DNA of 64,000 nt. Source: an uncultured delta proteobacterium. Its GTDB lineage: Bacteria; Desulfobacterota; Binatia; UBA9968. The stretch is taken from assembly GCA_963840855.1 (NCBI GenBank), contig CAWJBB010000010.1:32348-96347 (forward strand), written 5' to 3'. The position numbers and the translations under genes are program-made. Under the pieces are notes generated by a model. It saw only the letters and a program-made list of their open reading frames with translations, did not search any database and had not been told where the DNA came from. Within the stretch, counting starts at the first letter, position 1, and each line of letters opens with the position of its first letter. Below, one piece after another: positions 20,576-22,036 of this stretch.

Positions 20576-22036
20576 GTGATTGAGATGCCTGGAGAAGAAA
20601 TTAAACTTGAGCGCATTGAGGAATTTCTCTGGGAGATTCCTAAGCAGGGTGGAATGAGAGTGCCGGGGCGTATCTACGCCACGGAAAAGCTCATGTCCGG
20701 TTTAAAATCGGACAATAGTTTACGGCAAGTAATGAACGTCGCCCATCTGCCGGGTATCGTCGGATATTCTCTCGCTATGCCCGATATTCATTGGGGCTAT
20801 GGTTTTCCCATCGGCGGTGTGGCAGCGCTGAACATCGACGGCGGTGTGATTTCCCCCGGCGGCGTGGGCTACGATATTAATTGAGGGGTGCGCCTGGTGA
20901 AGACCAGTTTGGTCTTCGAAGATGTAAAGGACCGGCTAGGCCGCATCGTCGATACGATTTTTTCGCTTATTCCCTCCGGCGTCGGCTCCGAAGGCGCGAT
21001 CCCGAAACTTTCCAAGCAAGAAGAAAAGCGGCTTTTGCGCGACGGCGCAGGCTGGGCGGTGAACGCAGGCTACGGGCGCGACGAAGACCTCTCCTACATG
21101 GAAGAGGGTGGACGGTTGGCGGCGGCGGACGCCGATCTCGTCAGCGAGCGCGCTCTGGAACGCGGCCTTAAGCAGGTCGGGACTCTCGGATCGGGCAATC
21201 ATTTTCTTGAGATCGGCCGCGTTGAAGAAATATATCTGCCCCAAACGGCGGACGCGCTGGGCCTGTTCGCGGGCGAGATCGTCGTGTTGATCCACACCGG
21301 TTCGCGGGGCTTGGGTTACCAGGTTTGCGAGGACTCGCTCAAGATCATGAGCAAAGCGATGGCCAATTACCGCATCGAGCTGCCCGACAGGCAACTTGCC
21401 TGTGCGCCGATTCGATCACCGGAAGGGCAAGATTATCTCGCGTCGATGGCCGCGGCCGCGAATTATGCCTGGGCCAATCGCCAGGTCATCATGAGCCAAG
21501 CCGAGAAGGCATTCATGCAAGCGCTAGGCATCGGACCGAAGGAGCTAGGCTTCTCTCTCATCTACGATGTTTGCCACAACATCGCGAAGATCGAGGAACA
21601 TGTTGTCGATGGCAAGAAGCAGCTGCTTTGCGTGCATCGCAAAGGCGCAACGCGCGCCTTCGCTCCGGGCCACCCGCAAATCCCCGCGGCATATCAAGAC
21701 ATCGGCCAGCCGGTGCTCATACCCGGCGATATGGGGCGCTATTCGTATCTGCTCGTCGGCGCTGATGCCGCCATGGAAAAAACCTTTGGCAGCACCTGTC
21801 ACGGCGCCGGCAGAATGATGAGCCGCGCGCAATCGAAGAAGCAGAGCCAGGGCCTCAACATCGACCAGGAGATGGCGCGACGCGGAGTCATCGCCCGTTA
21901 TCAAGGGCGCGGCACCATGGCCGAGGAGATGCCCCACGCCTACAAAGACGTCGCCGACGTCGTCGAGACCATGGACCTCGCCGGCATTTCGAAACGGGTA
22001 GCGCGCTTTCGGCCGGTCGGCGTCGTCAAAGGCTGA
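20576..22036 (+). CDS. rtcB: RtcB RNA 3'-phosphate/5'-OH ligase (archaeal/eukaryote-type); single reading frame with in-frame TGA at the catalytic Cys, candidate selenoprotein
   Basis: ORFs 20576-20884 and 20888-22036 are in the same frame, separated only by TGA 20882-20884 plus [15 protein letters not shown]. Motifs AMPDIH, GSGNHF, HTGSRG, CHN, HRKGATR, PGDMG, CHGAGR and VVKG are intact. Confidence 0.95.
20899..20917 (+). promoter_or_regulatory. Putative bacterial SECIS element
   Basis: GAAGACCA-GTT-TGGTCTTC: perfect 8-bp stem, extendable by a U-G pair; loop begins with GU, 22 nt after the in-frame UGA. Confidence 0.75.

Follow-up and report, generated by a model that had tools for sequence, protein, structure and literature searches.

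The RNA ligase RtcB seals RNA in a GTP- and Mn-dependent three-step reaction, and Cys98 of the Pyrococcus horikoshii enzyme bridges both metals of the active site (PMC9745838). Here, we analyzed an rtcB gene in a 64,000-nucleotide (nt) stretch of DNA, hereafter the window, from an uncultured delta proteobacterium of the Binatia (contig CAWJBB010000010.1 of assembly GCA_963840855.1, positions 32,348 to 96,347 of the forward strand), in which the codon for this cysteine is UGA. The results indicate that the gene very probably encodes a full-length archease-type RtcB 3'-phosphate/5'-OH RNA ligase with the UGA at positions 20882-20884 of the window decoded as selenocysteine (Sec). The closest described enzymes are the Cys-type RtcB proteins, namely P. 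horikoshii PH1602 (PDB 4DWR, 1UC2 and 7LFQ), Thermus TTHA1785 (2EPG) and human RTCB, to which the window protein is homologous over its full length. It has the same metal ligands and the same His404 nucleophile as these enzymes, and its archease partner gene lies alongside in the window. In contrast to them, the bridging Cys98 codon is UGA and, if this codon is read as Sec, selenium instead of sulfur would bridge the two metals, an arrangement present in no solved or described RtcB.

The replacement of a metal-coordinating cysteine by Sec, as proposed for the window RtcB, is found in the formate dehydrogenase FdhA (Sec on Mo or W) and in [NiFeSe] hydrogenases (Sec on Ni), which likewise have a bacterial selenocysteine insertion sequence (SECIS) just 3' of the UGA and Cys homologues that are commoner than the Sec forms (PMC13188914). 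However, those are redox enzymes, whereas RtcB carries out nucleotidyl transfer and phosphodiester formation with Mn(II), and the residue in question bridges two ions. Sec has also been placed at exactly the same position of P. horikoshii RtcB in an engineered U98 enzyme (Haruna et al., 2014; PMC4150793), but this enzyme is artificial, since Sec was inserted at a UAG codon in E. coli by an EF-Tu-dependent, SECIS-free route; a natural Sec-containing RtcB is not mentioned in the passages of that paper concerned with RtcB. The P. horikoshii intein junction lies at the same Cys98 (PMC4150793), and the intein-containing RtcB families NF038162 and NF052663 were the best NCBIfam match of the window protein (726 bits, below the cut-off of 1150); the window RtcB has no intein, and the match was limited to the extein parts. 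The human RTCB-PYROXD1 system addresses the same weakness of the active site, a conserved cysteine through which metal-induced oxidation inactivates the enzyme: human RTCB loses its activity by copper-dependent oxidation and requires the flavoprotein PYROXD1 (PMC12263435), and a crystal of P. horikoshii RtcB showed Cys98 oxidized to sulfonic acid (PMC9745838). PYROXD1 is a separate flavoprotein, whereas the protection proposed for the window RtcB would be intrinsic, through the exchange of sulfur for selenium.

To compare the window gene with these enzymes, we read its frame through the UGA. Positions 20576-22036 of the plus strand form one RtcB frame whose sole internal stop is the TGA at 20882-20884, set in the codons GGC TAC GAT ATT AAT TGA GGG GTG CGC CTG (GYDIN*GVRL). 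A preliminary description of this DNA, made from the sequence alone, had joined the two open reading frames (ORFs) given by translation table 11, 20576-20884 (102 amino acids, aa) and 20888-22036 (382 aa), into this one frame, and re-reading of the sequence confirmed it. The read-through frame matched the whole Pfam RtcB profile (PF01139, positions 1-426 of 426) with 567 bits against a cut-off of 27 (E 3.6e-170). Furthermore, a phmmer comparison with the solved RtcB chains (E 2.4e-173 for 4DWR) aligned the TGA to P. horikoshii Cys98, which bears out the earlier placement of the TGA at the metal-bridging cysteine. The same alignment upheld the claim that the other catalytic motifs are intact. 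Asp95 and His203, both ligands of the second metal, correspond to D100 (GTG numbering; 20873..20875) and H209 (21200..21202), and His404, the nucleophile that accepts GMP, corresponds to H409 (21800-21802) (PMC9745838). The metal ligands His234 and His329 are likewise kept, as H240 (21293-21295) and H334 (21575-21577), all of these codons being on the plus strand, and besides the TGA the gene has no further lesions.

The preliminary description had proposed a product of 486 aa from GTG 20576, in which Sec would be residue 103. Full-length read-through stood, while the start was revised: the nearest database homologues, named Candidatus Binatia, are mostly 483 aa long, and because this length predominates among them the true start is probably ATG 20585. 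The coding sequence would then run from 20585 to 22036 on the plus strand (483 aa, Sec at residue 100) and end at the stop TGA at 22034-22036. Since the terminator of rtcB is itself TGA, TGA is still a stop in this genome and the code is standard, which rules out a genome-wide reading of TGA as a sense codon. A split gene giving two polypeptides was also ruled out, since neither piece has the essential bridging residue and the pattern of constraint described below contradicts it. The automated gene call yielded only a 379-aa product (P0117), and among the 120 database homologues listed, 117 had Cys at the site and 3 were 379-aa stubs.

The TGA was then looked for in related genomes (the window's own genome is called G000 and its relatives G001 and so on). 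We searched 41 related genomes in six frames and read the codon in 20 fetched loci. Among 19 Binatia orthologues (75-97% identity), TGA was present at this exact codon in 8 and TGC or TGT in 11. The eight carriers were G000, G007, G009, G011, G015, G017, G022 and G023, with G009 and G015 being unpublished genomes. Matches to the relatives spanned residues 3-486, and the N-terminal 100 codons were conserved as protein. The closest relative, the congener G001 (97% identity), has TGC at the site, one nucleotide from TGA, and TGC was also found in a 51%-identical RtcB paralogue in the fetched Binatia loci. As a separate observation, a fragment of a second paralogue class of roughly 50% identity (G013:C686:2472-3275) also had one in-frame TGA. 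A phylum-wide count of Sec versus Cys forms at E <= 1e-200, a cut-off too strict to be informative, matched 7 of 251 genomes, with TGA in G000 only.

To cover bacteria and archaea at large, the IUPAC pattern G-[YF]-D-I-N-TGA-G-x-R was scanned over one genome per species, and at least 118 stretches were found in species-representative genomes of several phyla. Eighty of these loci, hereafter the distant carriers, were fetched for frame reading; by the taxonomy labelled in the records they came from Thermodesulfobacteriota (Syntrophia, Desulfobacteria, Desulfarculia and Syntrophorhabdia), Acidobacteriota, Nitrospirota (including Ca. Magnetobacterium casense MYR-1), Binatia and a few others. The TGA lay inside an open RtcB-like frame in all 80 loci, and the frame reached at least 450 aa in 56 of them, the shorter frames being short at least partly where loci or contigs end. 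In addition, one Nitrospirota order was sampled evenly (81 genomes): RtcB was found in 78 genomes, a single TGA was present in 24 of 79 RtcB matches, and the fetched loci of this order comprised 7 TGA forms, all with the TGA at the Cys codon, and 23 Cys forms. Relatives sharing the TGA had been named in the preliminary description as a check on its proposal, and the 8 of 19 Binatia orthologues and the at least 118 species of the scan supply them. The presence of the same TGA codon in many genomes with open RtcB frames thus excludes a sequencing error or a private nonsense mutation as its origin.

One distant locus, L178 (G045:C3:2769-4202), comes from a metagenome-assembled genome (MAG) labelled Gemmatimonadales and has a Binatia-like TGA-rtcB with 80% identity and the same downstream hairpin as the window. 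Its four TGAs were considered as additional Sec codons and rejected, since three of the four lie in an out-of-frame stretch of roughly 45 residues, which points to two compensating indels arising from assembly errors or decay. Mis-binning, horizontal transfer with decay and long-read indel errors are candidate explanations for this copy.

Bacterial SECIS elements lie just downstream of the UGA, and a candidate hairpin was found there in the window at 20899..20917 on the plus strand, in which 20899-20906 pairs with 20910-20917 (8 base pairs, bp) around a GUU loop at 20907-20909. The published model of the bacterial SECIS has a loop of 3-9 nt, a stem of 4-16 bp, a G as the first or second nucleotide of the loop, a distance of 16-37 nt from UGA to loop and a minimum free energy of -7.5 kcal/mol or lower, and some bacterial SECIS elements fall outside it (PMC13188914). 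The window hairpin lies within all of these limits, with a 3-nt loop that begins with G, 8 bp, 22 nt from UGA to loop (14 nt from UGA to stem) and a folding energy of -9.5 kcal/mol for the hairpin alone; the hairpin region had a z-score of -2.9, and none of 200 shuffled sequences was as stable.

To see whether the hairpin is constrained beyond the protein code, synonymous variation was compared along the gene in a gapless alignment of 7 full-length Binatia TGA forms with 291 informative codons. The mean pairwise synonymous codon difference was 0.15 in the hairpin codons versus 0.54 gene-wide, and the hairpin had the least synonymous variation in rtcB, with 2 of 287 codon windows at or below 0.15, both at the hairpin. 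The hairpin is also associated with the TGA. In Binatia, the TGA forms folded at -8.7 to -12.8 kcal/mol with a mean of -11.4 (n = 8), compared to a mean of -6.3 for the Cys forms (n = 11; Mann-Whitney p 0.006, a value overstated by the relatedness of the genomes). In the Nitrospirota order, the means were -28.8 kcal/mol for TGA forms (n = 7) and -13.4 for Cys forms (n = 23; p 0.0004, which kinship makes optimistic).

Across the carriers, the hairpins fell into three classes, all located in the same codons. The Nitrospirota class has a long stem that extends back to the UGA. In this class, 6 pairs showed changes on both sides in 16 cells, among them synonymous exchanges at third positions that pair with each other (C-G to G-C), a level that no shuffle out of 500 attained, and 86% of cells were paired versus at most 62% with slid partners. 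In the class of the window (class A, 16 sequences), 95.3% of cells were paired, the loop residues G26 and U27 were invariant, and covariation, with both partners altered, was seen at 2 pairs and in 3 cells. The largest class comprised 51 of the 87 sequences; when bulges were allowed, 47 of its 51 members folded at -7.5 kcal/mol or lower, and the commonest apical loops were GGUC and GGUU, which resemble the loop of the E. coli fdhF SECIS. Taken together, the synonymous constraint, the association with TGA and the covariation argue that the hairpin structure is selected as RNA beyond the protein code.

A further resemblance was observed in the hairpin class of the window alone. When the stretch 20897-20917 was compared with the tRNA-Sec of relatives (L042, L045 and L048-L052), the 3' arm of the window hairpin (UGGUCUUC) was identical to part of the anticodon arm (..CUGGUCUUCAAAACCAG..), and the mRNA stretch UGAAGACCAG was perfectly complementary to 10 nt of tRNA-Sec, including the UCA anticodon. 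This complementarity was noticed post hoc and may be due to chance.

The genes for Sec synthesis and insertion were searched for in G000, whose assembly comprises 7.1 Mb in 93 contigs and is 94% complete with 8% contamination and 39 tRNAs. A selA-selB-selD cluster is present on another contig (C1), with selA scoring 616 bits; this is consistent with the preliminary description, which had seen no sel genes in the window. The selD gene (C1:37592-38518, minus strand) itself carries an in-frame TGA in its active site (VKAAG*AAKLGP), a hallmark of a Sec-using organism. In the 41 Binatia relatives, selA was found in 39, selB over the cut-off in 36 and a strong tRNA-Sec (64-79 bits) in 30; 6 of the 8 Binatia TGA carriers had a strong tRNA-Sec. 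The rtcB of G012, a genome reported as 100% complete, encodes Cys and its hairpin is degraded; no selA, selB or strong tRNA-Sec was found in this genome. Among the distant carriers, selA was present in 49 of 55 genomes (46 of 50 and 3 of 5). In the Nitrospirota order, selA occurred in 79 of 81 genomes and 23 of the 24 TGA matches were in selA genomes, the other being in G143; because selA is nearly universal in this order, finding it does not tell TGA carriers apart from genomes with the Cys form.

The distribution of the Sec and Cys states was followed on a maximum-likelihood tree of 20 Binatia RtcB sequences. The two states were interspersed, with 6 changes by parsimony, at least 2 of which are forced by well-supported branches, and G000 (Sec) was sister to G001 (Cys) with a support of 100/100. 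Such interleaving of Sec and Cys on trees is the usual pattern of selenoprotein families. On these sequences, the Sec and Cys forms of RtcB appear to have interconverted repeatedly in the Binatia lineage.

The decoding of the UGA as Sec that the preliminary description had put forward is supported by the shared TGA, the Sec machinery of the lineage and a hairpin that fits the SECIS model, and we consider it highly probable that UGA encodes Sec in this rtcB gene family. For the G000 strain itself our confidence is somewhat lower, because of the gaps in selB and tRNA-Sec in its assembly. In the mechanism that we propose, the hairpin at 20899-20917 would act as a bacterial SECIS and recruit SelB.GTP.Sec-tRNA(Sec) to a ribosome paused at the UGA, after which translation would proceed to the real TGA stop at 22034-22036. 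Selenium is thus predicted from the gene to be incorporated into RtcB, where the selenolate would replace the Cys98 thiolate as the bridge between the two catalytic Mn(II) ions, and the Mn(II) pair would serve the GTP-dependent guanylylation of His404 and the sealing of RNA. By analogy with the Cys-type enzymes, the Sec form presumably has the same GTP/Mn-dependent three-step ligase activity. A chalcogen ligand at position 98, which is Cys in all described members of the family, would be supplied only if the codon is read as Sec, a reading strongly indicated by the recurrence of the TGA, the stronger hairpins of TGA forms, the covariation and the synonymous constraint. Resistance to over-oxidation and irreversible oxidation has been proposed as a general advantage of Sec (PMC13188914), and the benefit that we favor here is that the chalcogen of the active site would be protected from irreversible over-oxidation; an altered metal affinity or preference may be a second benefit. 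The preliminary description had likewise suggested oxidation resistance and metal preference as possible consequences, together with a tie between RNA repair and the supply of selenium.

Several observations weigh against Sec decoding and are given here with the explanations they could favor. The TGA might be a nonsense mutation in a pseudogene or a miscalled TGC or TGT: it is one nucleotide from the TGC of the 97%-identical G001, at least one indel of the G000 assembly, in selB, is suspect, and gene callers give the 379-aa product only. However, with the identical TGA in 7 other relatives and at least 118 species whose frames are otherwise open, with an N-terminal region of 100 codons conserved as protein, no other lesions in the window copy and the strongest synonymous constraint of rtcB just downstream of the TGA, this explanation is hardly credible. 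The Sec gene might also be real in the lineage and yet undecoded in G000, if SelB and perhaps tRNA-Sec have been lost and the strain makes a truncated, inactive RtcB that is heading to loss or to conversion to Cys. In the G000 assembly, selB (C1:38583-40521, minus strand) is split into frames of 187 aa and 475 aa by an extra base at C1:39984 (= L021:11985), a 1-nt insertion relative to two congeners. In addition, the best Rfam match to tRNA-Sec in G000 scored 43 bits, below the 47-bit cut-off; none of the 39 tRNAs that ARAGORN found in G000 was a tRNA-Sec; blastn of the tRNA-Sec of 7 relatives against the whole of G000 gave nothing longer than 18 nt; and near the sel cluster (C1:28000-47000) neither Rfam at E <= 1 nor ARAGORN found one. 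The check for Sec machinery in G000 that had been suggested in the preliminary description was therefore answered in part, by selA and the Sec-type selD, while selB was frameshifted and tRNA-Sec was not found. On the other side, the two selB halves are otherwise intact and 95% identical to the selB of G001, and the contigs of all 3 covering environmental runs (3 studies) lack the extra base, one covering piece having a single other mismatch in 181 letters; these runs represent related populations and not necessarily the source sample, with at most 0.45 of the sampled words and a contig depth of 3.5-5.7, and run X1 had zero cover at the site. The extra base is probably an error of the assembly or a private mutation of very recent origin and not a feature of the lineage, and a lesion of selB specific to the strain may still be present. 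Moreover, selD keeps its Sec TGA, rtcB shows no secondary damage, and MAGs often miss tRNA genes, with just 39 tRNAs in G000. Loss of decoding in this strain is accordingly judged improbable.

Read-through without selenium, by near-cognate insertion of Cys or Trp or by SelB-independent stimulation through the hairpin, would give a Cys or Trp enzyme at a low level. In line with this, 2 of 5 closely inspected distant carriers, the Ca. Magnetobacterium casense draft (G042) and the Gemmatimonadales MAG (G045), had no detected selA, selB, selD or tRNA-Sec, and selA was not found in 6 of the 55 distant carriers. Sec at this site was also troublesome in the engineered archaeal RtcB, the U98 enzyme being recovered as a spontaneously cleaved fragment (PMC4150793). 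Nevertheless, selA is present in the other 49 of the 55 carriers, and the two genomes in which no machinery was detected are a draft and a MAG, where, the sel genes being clustered, one missing contig could remove them all. The distance and loop of the hairpin match the SECIS model of the SelB type, and a UGA at the catalytic Cys together with repeated switching between Sec and Cys is the standard selenoprotein signature. Furthermore, Trp cannot bridge two metals, and the Cys98Ala enzyme is dead (PMC9745838). We consequently give this explanation almost no weight. The hairpin and the chemistry supply the remaining points on the negative side. The hairpin is retained in three of the Cys forms from Binatia (-10.6 to -12.3 kcal/mol), as would be expected if they were converted recently, and its conservation could therefore be owed in part to the peptide VKTSLVF or to such a conversion. 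A strict contiguous-stem script applied with all criteria of the bacterial SECIS model accepted 36 of 92 TGA forms and, among the Cys forms, 4 of 33, and in many Nitrospirota loops neither the first nor the second nucleotide is a G. A selenolate is also an unusual ligand for Mn(II), a hard ion.

Directly upstream of rtcB and in the same orientation lies the gene for the RtcB activator archease (20052..20480, plus strand; Pfam Archease, E 5.1e-37), and its start is overlapped by 8 nt by a gene of the DHH/DHHA1 phosphoesterase family with a weak TrkA_N match at its N-terminus (18578..20059, plus strand). Archease adjoins rtcB in 15 of 18 Binatia loci and in 64 of 80 distant TGA-rtcB loci, and from this arrangement the window RtcB is most likely of the archease-dependent subtype. 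The DHH-family gene is a neighbor of rtcB in 13 of the 18 Binatia loci, compared to 3 of the 80 distant ones; it is probably in the same operon as archease and rtcB, and in this lineage it may have a specific role as a partner in the processing of RNA ends. We also observed very long, near-perfect intergenic hairpins flanking rtcB (window 20485-20559, 22035-22155 and about 23029-23123), with energies of -53.6 and -51.8 kcal/mol and z-scores of -3.4 and -4.2. Similar long hairpins occur elsewhere, including L021:12575-12691 between selB and selA, and they look like a palindromic intergenic family, similar to repetitive extragenic palindromes or miniature inverted-repeat transposable elements, or like terminators. 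Matches of Rfam microRNA families around rtcB were rejected, these being long hairpins that score far below the gathering cut-offs.

A natural Sec-RtcB was not found in literature searches of PubMed Central (PMC) and bioRxiv, in which the sole relevant paper was that on the engineered U98 enzyme. RtcB is missing from Table 1 of a review of May 2026, which covers 119 families and subfamilies of prokaryotic selenoproteins and the text of which does not contain the words "ligase" or "splicing" (PMC13188914). Likewise, a 2026 review of the tRNA ligase complex has no word beginning with "selen", and NCBIfam release 20 has no model for a Sec-RtcB. The preliminary description had left its novelty to a check of current catalogues, and the absence of RtcB from the 119-family table, from the searched literature and from NCBIfam speaks for it. 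Sec-RtcB is apparently an uncatalogued Sec variant of a known enzyme, made by a known decoding mechanism in several phyla, although supplementary lists (e.g. deep-Sep, PMC12013277) and NCBI Sec annotations lie beyond the scope of these searches and may hold it.

Selenoproteins are overwhelmingly redox enzymes. If the reading of UGA as Sec is true, Sec-RtcB would bring RNA repair, and the bridging ligand of a binuclear Mn site, into the range of selenium biology, and it would pose the chemical question of why a soft selenolate is placed on Mn(II). A wider proposal is that RtcB is a widespread, unrecognised family of selenoproteins and the first selenoenzyme known in RNA repair or ligation, with a selenolate-bridged binuclear Mn site in a non-redox enzyme, and that the Sec form, which would have switched with Cys many times, evolved as an intrinsic defence against irreversible oxidation, a bacterial counterpart of PYROXD1 that makes RNA repair dependent on the supply of selenium; we advance this tentatively and regard it, taken as a whole, as possible but rather doubtful. 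Oxidative or copper stress strikes RtcB at its catalytic Cys, a weak point that animals shield through PYROXD1, and the natural pairs of Sec and Cys enzymes, some of them 97% identical, are material with which protection by selenium can be compared with a retuning of the metal site. For genome annotation, gene callers truncate TGA-rtcB, and about 30% of the RtcB genes in one Nitrospirota order carry the TGA, so that the RtcB of many genomes may be recorded as damaged or as truncated at the N-terminus. In that case, selenoproteins would be undercounted in the selenoproteomes of Thermodesulfobacteriota, Nitrospirota, Acidobacteriota and Binatia.

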